Under the pieces are notes generated by a model. The model did not search any database and was not told where the DNA came from. It saw only the letters and a program-made list of their open reading frames with translations. 42,961 nucleotides of DNA from a virus. Lineage: Duplodnaviria > Heunggongvirae > Uroviricota > Caudoviricetes. Both the position numbers and the translations under genes were made by a program. The stretch lies in the IMG/VR virus record IMGVR_UViG_2531839476_000018; one strand, given 5' to 3'. Position 1 is the first letter of the stretch. Every line of letters begins with the position of its first letter. This document shows positions 3,768-42,492 of this stretch, in pieces.

Positions 3768-4424
3768 CTACATCAAAACCACTGATGAATTCGTTATCCA
3801 TATCAAAACCAAAAATTTTGAACCTTCCGATGGGGTTTCCACCGAAGGTGTTTCAATGCCACCCGCCCATACCCCGGCGGCTTTTACTGTGAGATACCCC
3901 TGTTTAATTGCCGCAATTAACTCACGCGATACATCTGAAATATCAGTATCAGGAAAGACCCAGACCGATATCGTCATGTCATGGTTATCGACTATCTGCA
4001 TTCGCAGTCCGGATCCTGCTGTTGCCGCGTCAAGAATTGCCGGAAGCGAATCATTCCGTCCGTCCCAGTTATTAATCGCAATCTTCGCTTTAAGGATGAC
4101 ACGATAAGTTTCATCGCTGAGGTACATGTATCCGGAATCAGGATCGTATGGCCCCTGCCATACACCCTGATCATATCCAAGCCCGTCGGTATCCCAGCTG
4201 AAATAGACACCTGAAATAGGCTGGCTGACAACACGGCTACGTCCGATCCACAATCCCAGAATGTCAAGTTGCACACCAACCGCAGAGTCAATATCAAATG
4301 CAGTAATCAGCCCTCTGGTGGCAGCCGCAACATCAATAAGCGGCCGGGTCATCAGATCAACATGTGCAAGAAATTTAGGTTTGGTGGCGTGGTAGTTTGT
4401 GATTAGTTCGGTGTATTTGCTCAT
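3768..4424 (-). CDS. Baseplate / tail protein (P2 gpI-like or Mu gp48-like position)
   Basis: 218-aa ORF between the baseplate J-like gene and the tail fibre; the family call rests on position and recollection. Confidence 0.5.
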
Positions 4425-8443: not shown

Positions 8444-9505
8444 TCATCCCCTTTGCAAAGCCGATCGCGTATACAGATCCGCCGCGCCACGCGCTTCGCA
8501 CATCATATCCATGTACCACGCCTGGCCCCTTGTGTCGCCAGTGTACATAATCCCGCGCACAATATAAACGCCATCCGTTGCGATGCTGGCAGGCTGCGAT
8601 GTGGTGCCGCTTAGCGTGATATTTCCATCCGTGTTCTGGTCGGTGATCTGACCACCAGCCATCGCAATATCGTTGTTCGACAAGGCGGTACGATACACGG
8701 AAGCCTGATCCAGCTGAATAAGTCCGTTAACCCGGATGTTCGGATTAATAAGCGCGCGGACGTTTACGCCGTTACCGATAGTCTGCTGCGGCATGCCAAT
8801 AAGCCCGGTAGCGCTGTTGAGCACAATCGCTTCATGAACATATTCGTTATTCGCCACCATCTGGCGCTGACCGTCCACGAATTGCCATGTTGTGCCACAT
8901 TGCCCGGCTACGTTATCCATTAGATGCCGCGTCATGCCAAAGAGTACCCGCCCCCGGGGGAATACAGTAGCAGGCATTTCAGGCGTCAGGCCTTCGGTCG
9001 CGCCTTTGGCTTCGAAGTCTTTCATCAGCGCACGGTTTACATCAGCGACCGTGTAACCGGCAGCCAGCGTCTGTGAGGTTATACTGGTGGCAAAAGCCAG
9101 ATCAGTATCTGCTGCCTGAATCAGGACGTAGGAATCAACCGGACTGTCTTTTCCTGTGACCGAGTAGCGAATTTCACCGCTGAAAATCAGTCCGTAGTTG
9201 CGGCCATCACTCTGACCCACGTCCGCCGCGTCAACTTCCCGCACGGTCCCGACGTCGCTTGCCGACACCTCCGGCGCGATACCGTCGTAACCGGCAATCA
9301 GACGCACTTTCGAAAACTCCTGCCCGGTGATTCGGTTCACAGTATCTGCCGAGAGGTTATAAATTTTGATAGTCCCTACCCGGGACGCGCTGCTGATGTT
9401 GAACCAGTCGATCGTAAAGGTGACTTTAAAATCACTTAGCTCAATTCCCTGACCGTTCCCGTCCACAAGCTGCAGCTCGAAATGTCTCATCCAGTTCTGT
9501 GACAT
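8444..9505 (-). CDS. Baseplate hub / late control D-like tail protein
   Basis: 353 aa, positioned between the tape-measure-proximal genes and the spike gene; family call by position and sequence character. Confidence 0.5.
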   Translation of the reverse strand: MSQNWMRHFELQLVDGNGQGIELSDFKVTFTIDWFNISSASRVGTIKIYNLSADTVNRITGQEFSKVRLIAGYDGIAPEVSASDVGTVREVDAADVGQSDGRNYGLIFSGEIRYSVTGKDSPVDSYVLIQAADTDLAFATSITSQTLAAGYTVADVNRALMKDFEAKGATEGLTPEMPATVFPRGRVLFGMTRHLMDNVAGQCGTTWQFVDGQRQMVANNEYVHEAIVLNSATGLIGMPQQTIGNGVNVRALINPNIRVNGLIQLDQASVYRTALSNNDIAMAGGQITDQNTDGNITLSGTTSQPASIATDGVYIVRGIMYTGDTRGQAWYMDMMCEARGAADLYTRSALQRG

Positions 9506-9507
9506 GC

Positions 9508-9810
9508 TTACTCCGTTGATACCAGTAAATGGCTGCGACCGCCCAGGTCAGTTTTTGTGGGGTAATCCTGTGTGTTGTCATCACAGACCACCACCAGCTT
9601 AAAACCAAGCCCCATACAGGCGTACTGCGCCAGCAGGTCAGCACCAGTGACGAGAGGAATACCGGAGATTACCGGCTCCCCTCTGTCGTTCTGCAGGTCC
9701 ATAATCCAGTACAGATCGCGCCATATGATGCTAATCCGCCAGGTGACACCACCCAGGACGATGCTGAACTGCTGGTTGTCCGCTGTCAGCGGAATTTCCT
9801 GAATTGTCAT
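9508..9810 (-). CDS. Tail protein (small, baseplate-associated)
   Basis: 100-aa ORF tightly packed in the tail operon. Confidence 0.4.
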   Translation of the reverse strand: MTIQEIPLTADNQQFSIVLGGVTWRISIIWRDLYWIMDLQNDRGEPVISGIPLVTGADLLAQYACMGLGFKLVVVCDDNTQDYPTKTDLGGRSHLLVSTE

Positions 9811-10397
9811 TAGCCGCCCCCCAGTAATGACGCCACGTTACCCGTGATGCTTTTCAGCAGTGAAGTATCTGGAGGTTTTGTGGTTTTGTTGCCGCTGTTC
9901 TGTACCGCCGACGTGCTGGCCCCTTCCTTCATGTTGGTTTTATCCGCGACGGTAATCTGCTGTGTCCGGGAGATAATGACCTCCCTCAGGGTGAGGACGG
10001 CGGACAGGACGTTTTCGGTTGTCTTGTCCGTCGTCACTTCCAGCGCCCGGATCAACATGTTGCTGTACAGCCGTTTACCGGTTACCACATCGAAGGGGAT
10101 ACGGCTTTCCTGCAGATCCAGTAGCTCCTGATACGTCTGCTGAGGACTCAGGCCGAGCAGGCTGGTAGCCGTCAGGTTACTGGCAAAATCCAGCAATGCG
10201 CCGCCACCGGCGAAACCAACCTCCATCACCACTTCTGACGGTTTTTTATAGGCATGATCAGCGACAGCGGCCCCGACCTCTACCGGATGCTCTGTTATTT
10301 CAAGCATATCTGTATGCTTCTCTGAAATAACAACACTGGGAACAATCATTCCTATTTTTCTGCTCTGCTGATGAAAAAGTGTAGAGAGAATATCCAC
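9810..10397 (-). CDS. Tail protein (tape-measure-distal baseplate assembly protein)
   Basis: 195-aa ORF whose start overlaps the tape-measure stop. Confidence 0.4.
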   Translation of the reverse strand: MDILSTLFHQQSRKIGMIVPSVVISEKHTDMLEITEHPVEVGAAVADHAYKKPSEVVMEVGFAGGGALLDFASNLTATSLLGLSPQQTYQELLDLQESRIPFDVVTGKRLYSNMLIRALEVTTDKTTENVLSAVLTLREVIISRTQQITVADKTNMKEGASTSAVQNSGNKTTKPPDTSLLKSITGNVASLLGGG

Positions 10398-17668: not shown

Positions 17669-18175
17669 TTAAATCTTCCAGGAAATTTCTGCATTGCCGT
17701 CAGCATCACCGGCACCTGTGAATTCAGCGTTGGTCAGCACCACGTTTTTGCCACTGACTGACGTGGACATGAATCCACCCAGCGGCACTTTGATGGATTC
17801 ATCAGTGGAGACGACAACGTATACCGGGTCGCCTTTTTTGATGGTGCTGGCATCAAAATCAGAACCGAGATTAACGGTCACGTAGCCACGCTTCATGGCG
17901 TCGCCCGGGAAGTTCTTGCCACTCCCCACCTGGCGAACCATGTCCGGCTGCGAAGTGGTCGGATAAGGGCGCACGTAGATCCCCTTCACCTTGTCTGCGG
18001 TATCACCATCTGCCAGCGGCACGAAAAAACCGTCATCATCGTATTTACCAGCCAGCCCATAAGCAGCGAAGGCGTTATCGGATTTAAGGACTACCGGTTC
18101 GACGGTTAAGTCCTGCGGGCGAGAGACAGCCCCGGCAATGCCAACAGGCATCCGGTACAGAAATACATTATTCAT
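17669..18175 (-). CDS. Capsid-associated protein (decoration or cement-like)
   Basis: 168-aa ORF between the scaffold and major capsid genes. Confidence 0.4.
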   Translation of the reverse strand: MNNVFLYRMPVGIAGAVSRPQDLTVEPVVLKSDNAFAAYGLAGKYDDDGFFVPLADGDTADKVKGIYVRPYPTTSQPDMVRQVGSGKNFPGDAMKRGYVTVNLGSDFDASTIKKGDPVYVVVSTDESIKVPLGGFMSTSVSGKNVVLTNAEFTGAGDADGNAEISWKI

Positions 18176-18177
18176 TT

Positions 18178-19398
18178 TTACCCTTTACGGTTTGCCCAGA
18201 ATTCAGCGTTTTGTTTGTTCAGGGAAGCGATACTGGTCATGCCCATGTTTGGGCGCTGTGCATCGCCGGTGGTGGCGCGGGTGTTTCGCCCTTTGGCAAT
18301 CTCAGACACGGCATTAAACGCCATGTCGACCGATTGTTTCGGTAATTTGCGGATATCCGCATCACCGACTATCTGGCGAACCAGCGTTTTGTCAGCAGAA
18401 GCCAGAACCTCACGTTTGAACGCGGTCGGTTTCATCTTACGGCTCAGATCGATACCCGGAACGATAACTTCGGCACGCCAGGCTGAGTCACCAGTAATCG
18501 TGGTTTCCTCTTCATCGTCCTCGCCGTCACCGGTCGGATTATCGTCAGGCTTATTGTCGTTATCGCCCGTCGCATTTCCTTCCAGCTTAGCCAGCAGGGC
18601 TTTCAGTAATGTTTTGAGGTCATCATCACTGTCGCCGGTTGGACCTCCGCCCATCTCTGGTGCTTTGTCCGGTAGCGGTTGCTGCGGGGACAGGTTGATG
18701 TTGAGATTAACGCCCTGCGGCAAATCCCCCTCATCTCCTGTAACCGATGCGGGAGCCGACTCCACCAGTTCGTTCATGGTGTCAGCGTCACCCGTTTTGA
18801 TGGCCGTGCGCATGCGGGTCCACCAGCTTTTCTTTTGATTTGCCATTGTGTCTCTGTCTCCAATTGCACAACGATTTCCGGCTCTGCCTTTAGGGACAAG
18901 AGCCACATGGTTTCCGGTAATATCGACCTGCTGAGCCTTACCCGGCTCAGCCTGTTTATATTCCGCGTCATAGCCACACGACACTTCGCGCAGGCCATCT
19001 TCGATCAGCTGAATGGCGTTTTCGTCTTTGACGATAAGGTCAGCCAGCATCAAATCAGACTGCACACCCGCCCCGCGCCGGACATTCTGAAGATGCCCGA
19101 CCGCGAGCTCTTTCCAGTTCTCTGGATTCACCAGCCGCACATCCCCGTTTTCATCCTCGGGATGCAACACCGTGATACTCATTCCTTCGAATGAGGCAAG
19201 CGTGGCGGGATGGAATACCTGCTCAGGAGAACGCGTGACGACTATTTCACCGAACTTATCGGGTTTCAGTTTTGGCAGGTCATCAGCACCATAGAGCTGC
19301 TTACCTGTTCGTCCTATCGGCACGTCTTTGCACAGCAACGAGCCGTCAGCCAGCTGATAGCGGGTTTCCCCCAGCCGGGTATTGAAAAAATATTTCAT
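18178..19398 (-). CDS. Scaffolding or prohead protease-like protein
   Basis: 406 aa with an acidic, low-complexity central region (GDSDDDLK...DGEDDEEE), typical of scaffolds. Confidence 0.5.
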   Translation of the reverse strand: MKYFFNTRLGETRYQLADGSLLCKDVPIGRTGKQLYGADDLPKLKPDKFGEIVVTRSPEQVFHPATLASFEGMSITVLHPEDENGDVRLVNPENWKELAVGHLQNVRRGAGVQSDLMLADLIVKDENAIQLIEDGLREVSCGYDAEYKQAEPGKAQQVDITGNHVALVPKGRAGNRCAIGDRDTMANQKKSWWTRMRTAIKTGDADTMNELVESAPASVTGDEGDLPQGVNLNINLSPQQPLPDKAPEMGGGPTGDSDDDLKTLLKALLAKLEGNATGDNDNKPDDNPTGDGEDDEEETTITGDSAWRAEVIVPGIDLSRKMKPTAFKREVLASADKTLVRQIVGDADIRKLPKQSVDMAFNAVSEIAKGRNTRATTGDAQRPNMGMTSIASLNKQNAEFWANRKG

Positions 19399-33746: not shown

Positions 33747-34295
33747 ATGAAACTGAAGCTGAACAATGTTCGTCTGGCCTTCCCGTCTCTGTTTGAAGCT
33801 AAAACTGTAAACGGCGAAGGCGATCCGCGTTTCTCCGCAGTATTTTTAATGTCTCCCAAACACCCACAACTGGAAGAAATCCGTAAAGCTATGAAGCAGG
33901 TAGCGAAGGAAAAATGGGGAGAGAAGTGGGAGCCCATTTATAACCAGCTGGAGAAAAAACTCAATCTGTGCCTGCATGATGGTGATGAAAAAGCAGAGTA
34001 TGAAGGCTTCCCCGGTAATTTCTTCCTGAATGCTGCTAACAAAGCGCGCCCAGCTGTTCTTGATCGCGATCGTTCGCCACTTATTCAGGCTGACGGACGT
34101 CCCTATGCAGGGTGCTATGTAAACGCCGTTATCGATATCTGGGCACAGGACAATAATTTCGGTAAACGCATTAATGCCTCACTCGGCGGAGTCCAGTTCC
34201 TGCGAGACGGCGATGCATTCGCTGGCGGCGGAGTGGCAAGCGCTGACGATTTCGACGATATCAGCGAAGGTGCTGATGCTGAAGCACTAATTTAA
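33747..34295 (+). CDS. DUF2815-type phage protein (putative ssDNA-binding partner of the DUF2800 nuclease)
   Basis: N-terminus MKLKLNNVRLAFPSLFE typical of DUF2815 as recalled; directly follows the nuclease. Confidence 0.6.
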   Translation: MKLKLNNVRLAFPSLFEAKTVNGEGDPRFSAVFLMSPKHPQLEEIRKAMKQVAKEKWGEKWEPIYNQLEKKLNLCLHDGDEKAEYEGFPGNFFLNAANKARPAVLDRDRSPLIQADGRPYAGCYVNAVIDIWAQDNNFGKRINASLGGVQFLRDGDAFAGGGVASADDFDDISEGADAEALI

Positions 34296-34310
34296 CCCTA
34301 CTTCATAGAC

Positions 34311-34329
34311 GCCCGGTTAAACACCGGGC
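34311..34329. other. Hairpin between convergent genes (gcccgg-ttaaaca-ccgggc)
   Basis: Perfect 6-bp stem between the 3' ends of the DUF2815 gene and AT-rich island 1; no strong T-tract on either side. Confidence 0.3.
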
Positions 34330-34347
34330 TACTGATTAGGCGTATAA

Positions 34348-34542
34348 TCACTCAGGAATCTTAATCTTTCTCAATTCTTTATTTAGTTCACAGATCTTTT
34401 TCTTAGACGGGAAAGTATCATACATCCAAAAACCAACAGTCTCTAAAACTATTATCATAACCATATACACAAGATAATTTAAAAGGCCTTCATTTTGCCC
34501 TATGGAAATAATGCAGATAATAGAAAAAAGGGTAAACAGCAC
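34348..34542 (-). CDS. AT-rich island 1, distal ORF (membrane protein fragment); possibly the frameshifted C-terminal part of one gene
   Basis: 64-aa hydrophobic ORF overlapping the upstream ORF in another frame across an A6/T6 homopolymer (34524-34529). Confidence 0.4.
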   Translation of the reverse strand: MLFTLFSIICIISIGQNEGLLNYLVYMVMIIVLETVGFWMYDTFPSKKKICELNKELRKIKIPE

Positions 34543-34976
34543 AAAACACAGAAAGGAAAACAGACGACTAATAATAAATAAAAAACCTGAAAAATCAACA
34601 TTAATAAAAACACTCCGTTATCTTTCTCTATATAATTCTGAAGCTTAATCAACTGATTTATATACTGTCTTTTTTCTAATCTATTGCAAATGTAAATAAC
34701 ATCTCTTCGGTTATAAGATGATTGCAATTTCAGCGCATCACGAATAATTTTATCATTTATTCTTTTTTCTATGGCACTCTTATCCTCCTCATCCAGATAA
34801 CGTTCATACTTAACTAAATATAAAATTAACTTCTTAACATATTTAGGCTCTTTATACTTATAATTAAAAATGATCTTTCTTATCCAGACTCCCATAACAA
34901 TCAAACATGAAAAAATATATCCAGCTATTTTCTCCAGATGCTCTGTATGGTCAATCAAGTATTGGATCATATGCAT
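34500..34976 (-). CDS. AT-rich island 1, proximal ORF: membrane protein of unknown function (cargo, antisense to the early operon)
   Basis: 158 aa with an N-terminal TM helix, a charged middle and a hydrophobic C-terminus; flanking intergenic DNA and the gene are visibly more AT-rich than neighbouring genes. Confidence 0.5.
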   Translation of the reverse strand: MHMIQYLIDHTEHLEKIAGYIFSCLIVMGVWIRKIIFNYKYKEPKYVKKLILYLVKYERYLDEEDKSAIEKRINDKIIRDALKLQSSYNRRDVIYICNRLEKRQYINQLIKLQNYIEKDNGVFLLMLIFQVFYLLLVVCFPFCVLCCLPFFLLSALFP

Positions 34977-35022
34977 AATTAATCTTTTAATCAGTTAATA
35001 GAATAAAAACCAAGGTAAACAC

Positions 35023-37086
35023 ATGTCCAATATACTATGGGGCGACCTGGAAACCTATTGCGAAATCCCTATTACGAACGGTACCCATGCGTATGCCGAA
35101 GGCGTTGAAGTGATGCTTTTCGCATGGGCTATCAACGACGGGCCAGTAAACGTGTGGGATATCACTGCCGGTGGTGGTATTCCACACGGCTTATACGAAG
35201 CAATCGCAGACCCTGAAACCCTGCTTTATTTCCATAACTCTCACTTCGACCGCACCGTTCTGCGTTATGCAATGCCGCGCCTGGCACCGCCAGTCGAACG
35301 TTGGCGCGACACAATGGTGCAGGCGCTGGCGCACGGCCTCCCGGGGTCTCTGGGGGAACTCTGCGAAATACTCGGCGTCCCGCAAGACAAAGCGAAGGAC
35401 AAAGAAGGTAAAGCGCTGATCCAGCTGTTCTGTAAGCCACGCCCGAAAAACAGCAAACTGCGTCGGGCCACCAGTAAAACCCACCCGGAAGAATGGCGGC
35501 GCTTTGTTGCTTACGCCGGACTGGATATCGAGGCAATGCGCGAAGTCTATAAACGTCTGCCGAAGTGGAATTATCAGGGGACAGAACTGGCGCTCTGGCA
35601 TCGTGATCAGCAGATCAACGACCGGGGCGTCTGCATGGACATTCAACTCGCGCGCGCTGCGATCGAAGCGGTAGACCAGGAGCAAAAGCGCCTGGCAAAG
35701 CGTACACAGGAAATGACTGATGGCGAAGTGCAGGCAGCCACACAACGAGACGCGTTGATTAAGCACATTGTTGAATCCTACGGTGTGGAGCTACCAGACA
35801 TGCAACGCAGTACTCTGGAACGTCGTATTGCCGACCCCGATTTACCATCTGCCGTGAAAGAACTGCTGGCTATCCGCCTGCAGGCCAGTACTACCAGCAC
35901 CAGTAAATACAAGGCACTGATGAAAGGCGTAAGCCACGACGGGCGCTTACGCGGTACGCTACAGTTCTGCGGGGCGTCACGTACCGGTCGTTGGGCCGGA
36001 CGGCTATTCCAGCCCCAGAACCTTCCCCGCCCTTCACTAAAACAGGAACAAATAGACGAAGGCATCGAAGCACTGAAAGCCGGATGTGCAGACCTGCTGT
36101 TTGACAATATCATGGAACTAACCAGTTCAGCGTTACGTGGCTGCATTATCGCGCCAACAGGCAAAAAGCTGGTGGTAAGTGACTTGTCGAACATTGAAGG
36201 CCGTATGCTGGCATGGCTGGCGGGAGAAGAATGGAAACTGAATGCATTCAGAGAGTACGACGCCGGAACGGGTCCGGACTTATATAAACTGGCGTATGCA
36301 AAAGCTTTCGATATTGCACCAGATGATGTTGATAAACACATGCGTCAGATCGGTAAAGTCATGGAACTCGGTCTGGGTTATGGTGGTGGTGTGTCGGCCT
36401 TCATCACTTTTGCACTGGTTTACGGTCTCGATCTCGACGAGCTGGCGAACGCCGCACTACCAAACATTCCCCGCGATGTTATCCGCGAGGCGAAAAGCTG
36501 GTACGACGAATCGGTTAAACGCAAGTCAACCTACGGGCTTTCTGAACGGGTATTTATCGCCTGCGACTCACTTAAACGTCTCTGGCGCCGGGCGCATCCC
36601 GCGACCTGTGATTTCTGGTACGAACTGGAGCGCACCGTCCGCACTGCAATCGCCACACCGCAAAAAACATTGTATTGCGGTTATCTTAAAATCCGCCGCG
36701 ATGGCGCGTGGCTGCGCATACAGCTACCATCCGGACGCGCTGTATGCTACCCGTCTCCGGTTATCGAAAAAGGGAATATCACCTACATGGGGGTTAACTC
36801 TTATTCGCGTAAATGGCAACGACTCAAAACCTACGGCGGAAAGCTGGTGGAGAACATCACCCAGGCGGCCGCCCGCGACATTCTGGCCGGAAACATGCCG
36901 CTTATCGAAGATGCCGGTTACAGCATTGTGCTGACGGTACACGACGAGGTGATCACCGAAGCACCTGACACAGAAGATTTCAACGATAAAGCGCTTTCCG
37001 CGCTTCTCTCCACTGACCCCGAATGGGCGCCCGATATCCCACTGAACGCTGGCGGTTTTGAGGCGTACCACTACAAAAAAGATTGA
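35023..37086 (+). CDS. Family A DNA polymerase (phage type, with N-terminal 3'-5' exonuclease-like domain)
   Basis: 687 aa; polymerase motifs recognisable: motif A-like [15 protein letters not shown], motif B-like [16 protein letters not shown], motif C LTVHDEV. Confidence 0.85.
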
Positions 37087-37150: not shown

Positions 37151-37912
37151 ATGCAGGAACTAACTGAAATGCCGATCACCTATCCATACCCGAGAGAAAC
37201 TTTTCCTGACTTTTTGAGGGAGTGTGGGTTCACCAATTTTTCCCACGAACAGCGTGAGACTTGTGACTGCTATCGTTTAACGAATGGCGTAATTGTTAAC
37301 CTTTACACCACCCGGACCATTCAGTTTCAAGGTAACCCTCAAGAACGTCCCAATGTTGAAACTGCAATAATGACCCATTTAGGAACGCCGCCCACGGCAA
37401 CACCACTAGCCGTAGAACAGCCATCTGAGCTCCCCAAAAAGATATTCATTGTTCACGGCCATGACCATACTGCAAAGGAGCAACTTGAGCTAATCCTTCA
37501 TAAACTTGGATTACCAGACCATTTCATTTTGCAGAATACGGGAGGGACTGGACTCACCATTATTGAAGAGCTTGAACGTGAAATTGGGCAAGGACAAACT
37601 GCTACCCGTTTCGGGATTGTTCTTTTGACACCTGATGATATGGGATACTCAAAGCGCGCCGGTGAAGCAGAAATCCAACCCCGCGCAAGACAGAACGTTG
37701 TACTCGAGATGGGTATGCTTCTTTCGTCCTTAGGGCGCAGCAATGTAGCAATCCTTCAGAAACAGCACCTAGAACAGCCTTCTGATGCTAACGGGATTTT
37801 GTATCTGAATTTCAACGACCATGTACGTGAAACAGTTCCTCGTCTAGTGCAACGGTTACAAAATTCTGGTTTCGAATTTACACAAGCTCAAATAGCTAAC
37901 GCTTCCTCGTAA
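37151..37912 (+). CDS. Hypothetical protein with a C-terminal TIR-like / nucleoside-deoxyribosyltransferase-like motif set; candidate defence effector
   Basis: 253 aa; residues about 100-250 contain KIFIVHGHDHTAKEQLELIL … GIVLLTPDD … NVVLEMGML, resembling TIR-like (COG4271-type) domains as recalled; unknown N-terminal 95 aa; AAGGA ribosome-binding site; own terminator. Confidence 0.4.
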   Translation: MQELTEMPITYPYPRETFPDFLRECGFTNFSHEQRETCDCYRLTNGVIVNLYTTRTIQFQGNPQERPNVETAIMTHLGTPPTATPLAVEQPSELPKKIFIVHGHDHTAKEQLELILHKLGLPDHFILQNTGGTGLTIIEELEREIGQGQTATRFGIVLLTPDDMGYSKRAGEAEIQPRARQNVVLEMGMLLSSLGRSNVAILQKQHLEQPSDANGILYLNFNDHVRETVPRLVQRLQNSGFEFTQAQIANASS

Positions 37913-38640: not shown

Positions 38641-39273
38641 TTAATCCGTATTTTTAACACGTATTTCGAAACACCCTTTTAATTTAGCTATTTCCTTTTT
38701 AGAGGACATGATTGTGAATCTCATCCCTTTTAAATCATTAACAAATTCAAATTTTGCGCTATTTGACTCACAATCACCAACAACAAAACCACTACCAAAT
38801 GAATTGAGCAACACTTTAGTATTACTACCATCTACCATATAATATTCGTTATTTTTAAATGCAGTAACCTTCCCGAATGTATAGCTCAATATCAACAACG
38901 TTATCACCCCTAAAGGAAAAGCTGACTTTAGGATTTTTAAATCGATATAATAAAATACGTTCTTATACTCTGCAAGCCTCCCAAATTTTCTAATGCTCTC
39001 CATATGATGTTCGTGTCTCTTACTATGGATTGGCATGGACACCACATTGTGATAATTCAACAAAAGCATAGCAAATAATAAAATATCCTGAACACTCATC
39101 ACAGAAGTTTCGGAGAAATAACCAAAAGGCCAATGAAATCCTATTATACAAATATTAGCCATTAGCATAACAACTATAAATACAATAAATGGAACATAAT
39201 ATTTCCCTTTCAAATCAAACATCAACGCCGCATATAAGGCGCCGAGAAATAAAAAACTAAAAACAAAAGCCAC
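38641..39273 (-). CDS. AT-rich island 2, distal ORF: polytopic membrane protein of unknown function (cargo, antisense)
   Basis: 210 aa with several TM helices followed by a soluble C-terminal domain; AT-rich. Confidence 0.5.
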   Translation of the reverse strand: MAFVFSFLFLGALYAALMFDLKGKYYVPFIVFIVVMLMANICIIGFHWPFGYFSETSVMSVQDILLFAMLLLNYHNVVSMPIHSKRHEHHMESIRKFGRLAEYKNVFYYIDLKILKSAFPLGVITLLILSYTFGKVTAFKNNEYYMVDGSNTKVLLNSFGSGFVVGDCESNSAKFEFVNDLKGMRFTIMSSKKEIAKLKGCFEIRVKNTD

Positions 39274-40895: not shown

Positions 40896-41092
40896 GCGAG
40901 AAACCCGACGATTTACTCACCCCGGATGAAGTATGCCAAAAGTTAGGTATTACACAGAAAACGCTATGTGAGTGGAATATTAAGCATCGTCATCGGGCTA
41001 TCCTGGCACCAATTCGTTTCAGTGCAAAAGTAGTTCGTTATGAGCGCCGAAATATCGACGCTTTTATTCAAAAATGTCGCAGCCAGTATTAA
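40892..41092 (+). CDS. Excisionase / AlpA-like HTH regulator
   Basis: 66 aa with HTH LLTPDEVCQKLGITQKTL; adjacent to and convergent with the integrase. Confidence 0.6.
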   Translation: MSEKPDDLLTPDEVCQKLGITQKTLCEWNIKHRHRAILAPIRFSAKVVRYERRNIDAFIQKCRSQY

Positions 41093-42492
41093 CCTCGCCG
41101 CCGTAGCAATGCCACCTGCGCAAGTATGCTCCGCTCGTGAGCCTCGAAAGCTTCGCGCTTCAACGCAATCTCTTCCTGTAAAATCTCATCAGAAAAGTCG
41201 TAATGTTCTGCCATCGGGTCATCTGACTTGCTGGAGTGGTGAAGGCAAAGGAGGCTGATTTCCCTTCGGTCTGAGCGGGAATAGCCTCTTTCCTTCATCA
41301 AGGCAATAACATTGCTCTTAAGGAATTTACGGCACATCGTATTAAATGCACCGTCTTTCCCTTTAACAGTCCCATCATGTTTTATTCCTTTTACAGCCCC
41401 GTCCGGGCTGTATGTTTTCACCAGCTTATCCAGTGATCGTTTTGAAAATGGCTGCATTGGATCACGTGGCTGCAAAAATACATAATCCCTGTTGCACTCA
41501 GGAACTGAATCACGCCAGGCTTTCTGCTCGTCGATAATCCGCCGGATCTCAGGGGTTATCGGCAGGCGGAAAGCCTTTTGTGTTTTCATAGCCCCTCGCA
41601 TGCCGATAACCCCTTCCGGATAAACAATTTCACCAGCCTCCTCGTGAACGTAGTCCCAGCGCAGGTTATGGACATTAATCGGACGAACACCAGTGATGAT
41701 CATGAAGCGAACAGCATTCTTCTGGTGTACAGAGGTGCAGGCAGCAACATTGAGCCAGAGTCGGGCGATTGATTCAATATCGGTAAAAAGCCGTGTGGGG
41801 GTAGGTTTCTGTACGCGGGAGGAAACATAATCATCTGGCAGACTGGCGGCAACATTGCGGCCGTTGCAAAGAGTAGGTGCGCAGAACTTCCAGAACCGAC
41901 GGAGCTCGGCAAACAACTCCAGGGCGTTATTGTTCGAGCGAGTAGCGATCCACTCGTCCAGCACTTCCACCAGCCGATTGTATGTTACGTCGCTGAACAC
42001 CTCGCGCTCGCCGAACGTTGCTTTAATCCGGTCGATACGCACCCCGTAGGTTGTGAAACTGTCCGGGCTCAGCTTCTGCCGGGCGACTTTGGCTTTGAGG
42101 TCATCCCGGTACATTTCCAGCGCTGCATGTACGGACTCTGCCCGCAGGCCACCGTCAGCCATACCTAGCGCTTTTTCGCGCGCCAGCTGGATAGCGAGCT
42201 CCGGCCACTCGCCGAGCTTTTTACCTTTGAGGCCCATCTTTTTTGGAAACTCGGCGTAAAATGTAACCTTACCGGCTTTGCTGAAATCGATACGGAGATA
42301 GTTCTCTTTTTCGTATTTGGAACGGCGAGCCACGCCGGAAGCAGCGAGGATGATTTTGGCGGCAGCAACACAGATTTTCATGTGTGCGCTAGTATAGGGG
42401 GGTTTACAGGCGTCCCATTTTTCAGAAGCGGCTAAAACATCGTCATTATTGGGGCTATCCGGATTATGTGTTACAGTGCGCGGCATTCTCAA
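41089..42492 (-). CDS. int: Tyrosine site-specific integrase
   Basis: 467 aa; C-terminal catalytic region with …LCLHHSSK… and …AEHYDF… (candidate catalytic Tyr); located at the prophage end beside host yfhL. Confidence 0.8.
   Translation of the reverse strand: MRMPRTVTHNPDSPNNDDVLAASEKWDACKPPYTSAHMKICVAAAKIILAASGVARRSKYEKENYLRIDFSKAGKVTFYAEFPKKMGLKGKKLGEWPELAIQLAREKALGMADGGLRAESVHAALEMYRDDLKAKVARQKLSPDSFTTYGVRIDRIKATFGEREVFSDVTYNRLVEVLDEWIATRSNNNALELFAELRRFWKFCAPTLCNGRNVAASLPDDYVSSRVQKPTPTRLFTDIESIARLWLNVAACTSVHQKNAVRFMIITGVRPINVHNLRWDYVHEEAGEIVYPEGVIGMRGAMKTQKAFRLPITPEIRRIIDEQKAWRDSVPECNRDYVFLQPRDPMQPFSKRSLDKLVKTYSPDGAVKGIKHDGTVKGKDGAFNTMCRKFLKSNVIALMKERGYSRSDRREISLLCLHHSSKSDDPMAEHYDFSDEILQEEIALKREAFEAHERSILAQVALLRRRG

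Follow-up and report, generated by a model that had tools for sequence, protein, structure and literature searches.

Why a short AT-rich block should lie, read in the opposite direction, between two replication genes of an Escherichia coli prophage, and why the membrane-protein gene that it carries should be broken into two reading frames, are the questions raised by the locus described here. The window (the whole stretch of 42,961 nucleotides that was analysed) comes from contig AKNI01000032.1 in the draft genome of E. coli EPEC C342-62 (GCA_000268205.1), and the prophage that carries the block is a myovirus-type element of roughly 42 kb integrated beside yfhL. The best explanation for the locus as a whole, and one that we regard as probable, combines a single-gene cassette, a homopolymer artefact that splits the gene, and a candidate defence protein as its product.

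An AT-rich antisense block between SSB and polymerase genes

The stop codon of the DUF2815 gene (34295), which encodes an Enc34-type single-stranded DNA-binding protein (SSB), and the ATG of the family-A DNA polymerase gene (35023) are separated by 727 bases with a G+C content of 30.0%. In 200-base windows, G+C ranges from 26 to 35% inside this block versus 47 to 60% in its flanks. When the window is divided into 400-base bins, its lowest G+C value falls in the block (0.295, positions 34401-34800), and the second lowest (0.32, positions 38801-39200) corresponds to a second antisense island. The original prediction, made from the letters of the DNA, of an AT-rich block transcribed against its neighbours is thereby borne out, with windowed G+C clearly below that of the flanks (30% vs about 50%). 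The two overlapping minus-strand ORFs in different frames that it described are present, as is the A6 run at which it proposed to join them. The features of the block and its flanks are as follows:

33747-34295, plus strand: left flank, DUF2815 / Enc34-type ssDNA-binding protein (PF10991, E = 7.6e-44)
34296-35022: cargo cassette, from the SSB stop codon to the polymerase ATG; 30% G+C, replaced by alternative cassettes elsewhere
34311-34329: inverted repeat GCCCGGT-TAAAC-ACCGGGC, directly after the SSB gene
34348-34976, minus strand: whole cargo gene, 629 bases here versus 630 (209 aa) in relatives
34348-34542, minus strand: ORF 2, 64 aa, GTG start; the authentic C-terminal frame, open upstream to 34620
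34500-34976, minus strand: ORF 1, 158 aa, identical to EIQ69750.1 of E. coli EPEC C342-62
34524-34529: A6 run named in the original prediction, of the same length in relatives
34606-34610: frame lesion, A5 (T5 on the coding strand), codons F123-F124; A6 in relatives
34763-34768: T6 run, T5 in the Logan assembly of SRR060744
35000-35029, minus strand: weak sigma-70-like match TGGACA-18-TATTCT, a consensus match only
35023-37086, plus strand: right flank, family-A DNA polymerase (PF00476)

The inverted repeat is shared with one of the alternative cassettes, the BRO-N variant described below, where a T-run comes after it; in the window it is not a canonical terminator. The sigma-70-like match is located upstream of the cargo-gene ATG and overlaps the start of the polymerase gene. 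Such sites are not significantly enriched (5 found vs 3.7 expected).

Position and origin of the frame break

An intact version of the gene does exist in related prophages. Among 5,426 complete E. coli genomes, 159 contain the flanking genes and 67 of these this insert; in the complete-genome relatives it consists of a single 630-nt CDS for a 209-aa product annotated as 'hypothetical protein' (WP_000551017.1, WP_000551020.1, WP_000551014.1, WP_000551021.1). Among the matches listed, the CDS is annotated in 58 of 60 genomes and all full-length matches span 630 bases. The copy in the window has no continuous 630-nt frame, its 629 nt being split into products of 158 and 64 aa.

In the alignment, the only length difference from the relatives lies at 34606-34610, where the window has A5 and the relatives have A6 (or, in one case, G+A5, of the same total length). 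This is about 80 bases upstream, in the coding direction, of the A6 run at 34524-34529 to which the original prediction had assigned the junction. Both frames are open from 34502 to 34620, so that a one-base insertion anywhere in this interval yields a continuous ORF. Adding an A at 34524-34529 does so, but leaves 27 out-of-frame residues, and the junction at this run, whose length is unchanged in the relatives, is therefore ruled out. An A added at 34606-34610 instead reproduces WP_000551017.1 (209 aa) residue for residue. A single-base change thus restores one membrane protein, as had been proposed, at this other position. Two further readings of the split were also discarded: two genuinely separate genes, since the relatives have one CDS and the 64-aa sequence has no record as a product, and programmed frameshifting (the coding strand reads G-UUU-UUA at the site), since the normal gene is in a single frame.

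As a consequence of where the base is missing, residues 1-123 of ORF 1 are authentic and comprise the first predicted transmembrane helix (TM1) and the cytoplasmic domain, and its last 35 residues form an out-of-frame hydrophobic tail. The frameshift falls at F123/F124, in a predicted beta-hairpin just before TM2; part of TM2, TM3 and a conserved tail are found in ORF 2. The 158-aa product loses TM2, TM3 and the conserved tail, and is very probably inactive if the frameshift is real.

Whether it is real can be approached by comparison with other sequences. In a comparison with four complete relatives, exactly four indels are private to the window, each of them an A/T6-to-5 contraction:

3811-3815: DUF2612 baseplate gene, 3' end
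18175-18179: spacer between two head genes
34606-34610: cargo gene of the AT-rich block
39259-39263: second antisense cargo gene, 5' part

The Logan assembly of SRR060744, which was made independently, shows no substitutions relative to the window over 10,065 bases, is identical to it over a further 11,031, and has the unique truncated DUF2612 product of the window; from the lack of substitutions and this common allele, SRR060744 appears to come from the same strain. In this assembly, A6 is found at both 34606-34610 and 39259-39263, and a T5 at 34763-34768 splits the same gene otherwise, into 72 + 88 aa; the 3811-3815 contraction is identical in both assemblies of the strain. The two assemblies disagree at three A/T6 runs, i.e., homopolymer length depends on the assembler, as ambiguous homopolymer reads behave, and sequencing error explains this disagreement better than phase variation does. 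Since the second assembly has A6 at the lesion and is contracted at another run of the gene, the split in the window is quite probably an assembly artefact caused by a one-base homopolymer error. Of the three origins first considered (a frameshift mutation, a sequencing error at the homopolymer, or slippage-based phase variation), the second is thus the best supported, at 34606-34610 rather than at the run initially named.

Several observations speak against an artefact. In addition to the DUF2612 contraction being reproduced, the same T5 allele occurs on another haplotype, in GCA_900607965.1 and in the Logan assembly of ERR12651206, whose copies are near-identical and differ from the window by 7 substitutions in 727 bases; this contraction can therefore occur, or be called, elsewhere. 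Other broken alleles of the gene exist in nature: E63* in O55:H7 DEC5B, Q104* on 8 contigs, an A6-to-A5 contraction at 34670-34675 on 4 contigs, and an in-frame deletion of 30 aa. Taken together, the recurrence of the T5 allele in two assemblies, the nonsense allele of DEC5B, and the Q104*, second frameshift and deletion alleles among cluster members would be compatible with a genuine loss of function, the cargo gene of the window being a pseudogene and one of several independent inactivations of a dispensable or costly prophage gene; the DUF2612 contraction seen in both assemblies would fit a decaying prophage. We nonetheless consider this unlikely, given the A6 at 34606-34610 and the contraction elsewhere in the gene in the SRR060744 assembly, the fact that all four private indels belong to one error-typical class, and the presence of the A5 allele in none of the 67 complete genomes (exact search with a 90-base probe across the site).

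Some of the same data could be taken to mean that slipped-strand mispairing switches a costly membrane gene off and on as the run alternates between 5 and 6 bases: the same run is contracted on two haplotypes, further A6 runs are where the frame breaks in other alleles, and mixed populations could mimic the difference in run length between two assemblies. The run is merely 6 bases long, however, and is one of the ten A/T runs of 5-6 bases that the gene contains simply because of its 29% G+C. Moreover, the length of the tract does not vary among close strains as it would at a contingency locus, since all 67 complete genomes lack A5 and the full-length matches listed have the same 630 bases, and an unrelated gene, at 39259-39263, likewise differs between the assemblies. 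Slippage-based phase variation is accordingly not supported, and we regard it as most improbable.

A cargo site in the prophage replication module

With the gene restored, the block can be read as a cassette carrying one cargo gene, located at a variable hotspot within the prophage replication module. Across the 159 E. coli genomes with this replication module, the interval from the SSB stop to the polymerase start carries different inserts, the 209-aa gene being present in 67 and other contents in 92. One of these is an Nmad5-family gene, either alone or accompanied by different antisense genes (229 aa or 89 aa); others are a BRO-N gene and a 199-aa antisense gene. At least five alternative contents were found at the site, which, together with a composition unlike that of the flanks, identifies the block as an exchanged cassette. 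Most variants cease to be similar at the SSB stop codon and are alike again from the polymerase start onwards, meaning that most cassettes supply the ribosome-binding region of the polymerase; the BRO-N variant has a further ~35 bases in common after the SSB stop, including the hairpin.

In architecture the 199-aa protein matches the 209-aa one, with whose family it can be aligned, nearest to a clade of 204-aa proteins, but the two are only ~17% identical; a close relative of the 199-aa protein is found at the same site in Klebsiella aerogenes. Both unrelated genes and members of a single diverged family have therefore been exchanged at the site. Composition and orientation had been read as signs of a recent horizontal insertion: horizontal exchange is upheld by the swapping of contents at the site, whereas 'recent' is not, as a homologue with ~17% identity at the same site points to old diversification.

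Further variable sites lie downstream. After the polymerase gene, the window encodes a TIR protein, PDC-S35 (PADLOC E = 6.8e-109), O55:H7 has a hypothetical gene and YfbU, and O103:H2 has ANR and DUF4406, with a cytosine methyltransferase after VRR-NUC. Another site, between VRR-NUC and the SNF2 helicase, carries antisense genes of 711, 798, 918 or 930 nt. The protein of the second AT-rich island (38641-39273) has no relation to the cargo protein by BLASTP.

In its behaviour, the cassette is comparable to a classical prophage moron that occupies a hotspot. As at the defence hotspots of P2 and P4 and the lambdoid sites upstream of Q, it is an AT-rich single-gene insert, independently oriented between conserved phage genes and replaced by unrelated genes in other genomes, and candidate defence genes such as the TIR protein PDC-S35 occupy neighbouring variable sites. 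Unlike those named hotspots, the present site is inside the replication module, between the Enc34-type SSB and PolA, and most swaps run from stop codon to start codon. No description of an SSB-PolA cargo site was found in searches of the literature.

A small membrane-protein family and its possible role in defence

The intact product is one 209-aa predicted inner-membrane protein. It belongs to phrog_10579, a PHROGs family of unknown function, which it matches over residues 28-209 and profile positions 1-182 of 182 (E = 2.9e-108); matches to phrog_10579 were also obtained for 34 of 36 aligned family members. An exhaustive HMMER search over 1.84 billion representatives returned only 11 remote relatives, of about 150-260 aa and mostly 209-218, and a profile search gave 32 matches in E. 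coli, Klebsiella, Enterobacter, and Citrobacter. The members fall into clades of about 209, 204, and 199 aa and are 13-42% identical to the query, with length and architecture kept down to about 15-25% identity in four genera. Residues Y57, R90, Y95, F123, P190, I195, N199, and K204 are invariant or nearly so in the family alignment.

The AlphaFold model built from this alignment (mean pLDDT 80.5) consists of a helix at 11-37 (TM1), helices at 45-111, a beta-hairpin at 116-125, helices at 132-160 and 165-188 (TM2 and TM3), and a short helix at 192-202. Lysines and arginines together number 20 in the middle domain and 7 in the tail, and none are present in the N-terminus or the TM2-TM3 loop, which by the positive-inside rule fits an N-out/C-in topology with nearly all of the non-membrane mass in the cytoplasm. 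From an N-terminus that would be short and periplasmic, the protein would thus pass through TM1 into a basic, helical domain of ~90 residues in the cytoplasm that ends in the beta-hairpin, and then through the TM2-TM3 hairpin to a conserved C-terminal helix, also basic and cytoplasmic.

Comparisons with characterised proteins yielded little. The protein has no match in Pfam, where the 36 members give only noise (best E = 0.002), none in PADLOC 2.0 at E <= 0.1, and matches only far below the cut-offs in NCBIfam. A search of PDB sequences with the intact protein and the 36-member alignment gave nothing usable, and fold searches retrieved generic helical bundles only. A CorA-like channel was ruled out, as the protein lacks the GMN motif in the C-terminal transmembrane loop: relative to CorA/MRS2-type channels, identity is 5-8%, the TM2-TM3 loop reads GQNEG instead of the CorA GMN signature, there is an extra N-terminal TM helix, and the length is less than two-thirds that of CorA. 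Nor does the protein match any holin family in Pfam; the lambda-family holin and the endolysin of the prophage are encoded ~9 kb from the cargo gene, which is outside the lysis cassette.

In their genomic contexts, the members of the family are always stand-alone cargo, with no partner gene in any context examined. They are found in the replication module (in the window and in K. aerogenes), behind umuDC, close to the end of a different prophage, in Klebsiella and Enterobacter, immediately upstream of the Q antiterminator and adjoining a dGTPase (PADLOC E = 5.5e-144) and a type II restriction-modification pair, at a prophage end, and in a conjugative element beside TraG_N. The reverse transcriptase that adjoins the Klebsiella copies is not clearly a defence reverse transcriptase.

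The family has also been flagged by an independent machine-learning study. Table S10 of DefensePredictor contains WP_000551021.1, which is the 209-aa product in O103:H2 strain 12009, under the label 'Predicted novel defense gene' and with a mean log-odds of 6.1, the strict cut-off being 4, and 45% of the tested predictions were validated (DeWeirdt, Mahoney and Laub, Science 2026; PMC13092281). The family thus appears among the 'predicted novel defense gene' clusters of that study as a prediction. In the parts examined of the other tables, which include screened and validated systems, neither the family accessions nor the N-terminal sequences of members were found (PMC13092281). Apart from Table S10, literature searches on the strain, related phages, accessions and hotspot yielded nothing specific.

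From the stand-alone cargo position, the defence neighbours (PDC-S35, dGTPase, restriction-modification) and the DefensePredictor listing, we infer a role in defence: the intact protein would be a stand-alone accessory gene product expressed from the prophage and protecting the lysogen against other phages. The superinfection-exclusion or abortive-infection role guessed at in the original prediction is in line with the DefensePredictor listing and the nearby defence genes. Its cytoplasmic domain may sense infection, upon which the TM hairpin would oligomerise and permeabilise the membrane, a mechanism of the abortive-infection type; blocking DNA entry would be a close second. A sensor-plus-membrane-effector mechanism is favoured by the distribution of conserved parts, which are predicted to be cytoplasmic, with almost nothing exposed in the periplasm. 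The most specific form of this proposal, in which phrog_10579 is a new single-protein membrane anti-phage system whose helical sensor gates a TM-hairpin pore and whose broken alleles reflect a self-toxic cost, is put forward only tentatively.

Membrane proteins that exclude other phages offer the nearest comparison. T4 Imm, P22 SieA, and HK97 gp15 block genome entry at the inner membrane, and lambda RexB acts together with RexA. Like Imm, SieA, SieB, RexB, and gp15, the present protein is small, encoded by a phage and of the inner membrane, has no enzymatic domain, and seems to be expressed without dependence on the lytic genes. No sequence relationship to them was found with Pfam or PADLOC models, however, and the architecture differs, in that TM1 is followed by a helical domain of 90 residues in the cytoplasm and then by the TM hairpin and the conserved tail; RexB works with RexA, whereas no partner gene is present here. 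By analogy, the protein would act, at most, like these small membrane exclusion and abortive-infection proteins of T4, P22, lambda, and HK97.

The intact protein could, then, act in superinfection exclusion by stopping phage genomes from entering at the inner membrane, and not be a suicide effector, as would suit a predicted inner-membrane prophage cargo gene oriented against the lytic operon and lacking a partner in any context. We find this rather unlikely: only 14 N-terminal residues and a 4-residue loop are predicted to be exposed in the periplasm, the conserved positions map to the cytoplasmic domain, to the hairpin preceding TM2 and to the tail, which is likewise cytoplasmic, and Pfam, with its phage exclusion families, shows no similarity. 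The presence of the family in a conjugative element also fits general defence better than exclusion of cognate phages.

A somewhat stronger competitor, which still falls short of an even chance, is that the protein has no defence role and serves host membrane physiology, lysis timing or prophage maintenance, or is simply selfish cargo. The lack of homology to any characterised protein in sequence, profile and fold searches is consistent with this, as are the failure of over half of the DefensePredictor candidates at validation and the several natural alleles that are broken. Against it stand the conservation of length and architecture across four genera at such low identity, the occupation of cargo hotspots beside defence genes, and the position of the gene away from the lysis cassette.

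For the biology of these prophages, the split gene, and with it phase variation, should not be pursued as such, since miscalled homopolymers in a draft assembly account for it best; at least one more such miscall is present in the window, at 39259-39263, where it truncates the second cargo gene. The gene and its family were already catalogued as hypothetical and predicted as defence, and are therefore not new as objects. The useful products are a corrected anatomy of the locus, a warning about homopolymer errors for this assembly, and a candidate family with its hotspot. The SSB-PolA junction of a widespread E. coli prophage family is a clean cassette-exchange hotspot and, together with the two hotspots downstream, a compact place to mine for accessory and defence genes. 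Its cargo here belongs to a small membrane-protein family of conserved architecture which, if validated, would represent a minimal membrane-acting defence protein with a new fold arrangement.

The prophage and its variable sites

The window is almost wholly occupied by one myovirus-type prophage of about 42 kb, integrated beside yfhL and shoB. Its kin include the induced phages Escherichia phage vB_EcoM-689R2 (ON470582), vB_EcoM-611R5 (ON470588) and vB_EcoM-606R2 (ON470579), in all three of which the 209-aa membrane-protein gene that is split in the window is intact. Three further genes lie towards the right end:

37151-37912, plus strand: TIR-domain protein gene (PF10137; PADLOC candidate system PDC-S35, E = 6.8e-109)
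38641-39273, minus strand: second antisense cargo gene, AT-rich (32% G+C), encoding a multi-TM protein
41089-42492: integrase gene (the right end of the window lies near yfhL)

The TIR-domain gene occupies a third variable site, directly 3' of the polymerase gene, which holds a hypothetical gene and YfbU in O55:H7, and ANR and DUF4406 in O103:H2. The second antisense cargo gene, for which no match was found in Pfam, PADLOC or PHROG, is located in the interval between the VRR-NUC and SNF2 helicase genes, where other strains carry other antisense genes of 711, 918 or 930 nt.

Homopolymer contractions and single-base frameshifts

In the window, an A6-to-A5 contraction at 39259-39263 shortens this second cargo gene too; its intact version, present in relatives and in the Logan assembly of SRR060744 (an independent assembly, apparently of the same strain), spans 798 nt and encodes 265 aa. 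Two other runs are contracted in the window:

3768-4424, minus strand: DUF2612 baseplate-wedge gene, with a contracted run at 3811-3815
18175-18179: window-private T6-to-T5 contraction in the few-base spacer that separates the stop of DUF2213 from the start of Gp24

The latter breaks no ORF. An A6-to-A5 contraction close to the 3' end of the DUF2612 gene leaves its product at 218 aa in the window, versus 226 aa in relatives. This contraction is common to the GenBank and Logan assemblies of the window strain and absent from all other cluster members sampled; it may be real or else a systematic error.

Private homopolymer indels also occur in complete-genome relatives. In FDAARGOS_1059 they affect DUF2213 and a baseplate protein, and in the O103:H2 strain 12009 the minor head protein and pinE; each of these genes carries the annotation 'frameshifted'. 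Single-base frameshifts are common in assemblies of this prophage family. In addition, many database entries in the 209-aa protein cluster are N-terminally 'partial', with assorted lengths of 135-173 aa; breaks within this AT-rich gene may be frequent in draft assemblies.

Cassette exchange between the SSB and polymerase genes

GCA_900607965.1 combines in one strain the T5 frameshift of the 209-aa gene (the coding-strand name of the A5 allele at 34606-34610) and an IS1 element inserted between the start of this gene and the polymerase gene (L020, about 9210-9874), the latter being absent from the near-identical ERR12651206 Logan contig.

The cassette edges lie at 34296 and 35022 in the window and, in most variants, the swap begins at the stop codon of the SSB gene and ends at the start codon of the polymerase gene. 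The BRO-N variant is exceptional at both edges, as it shares the window's hairpin after the SSB gene on the left, and its annotated polymerase start is further downstream on the right. At the same site, other E. coli and Klebsiella aerogenes carry a gene for a 199-aa protein (L005, 1123-1722; L014, 6001-6600). Despite an identity of only some 17%, this protein and the 209-aa one have the same architecture and alignable motifs. The hotspot therefore swaps diverged members of one family and, since the swap reaches the polymerase start codon, the polymerase ribosome-binding region varies with the cargo in most variants.
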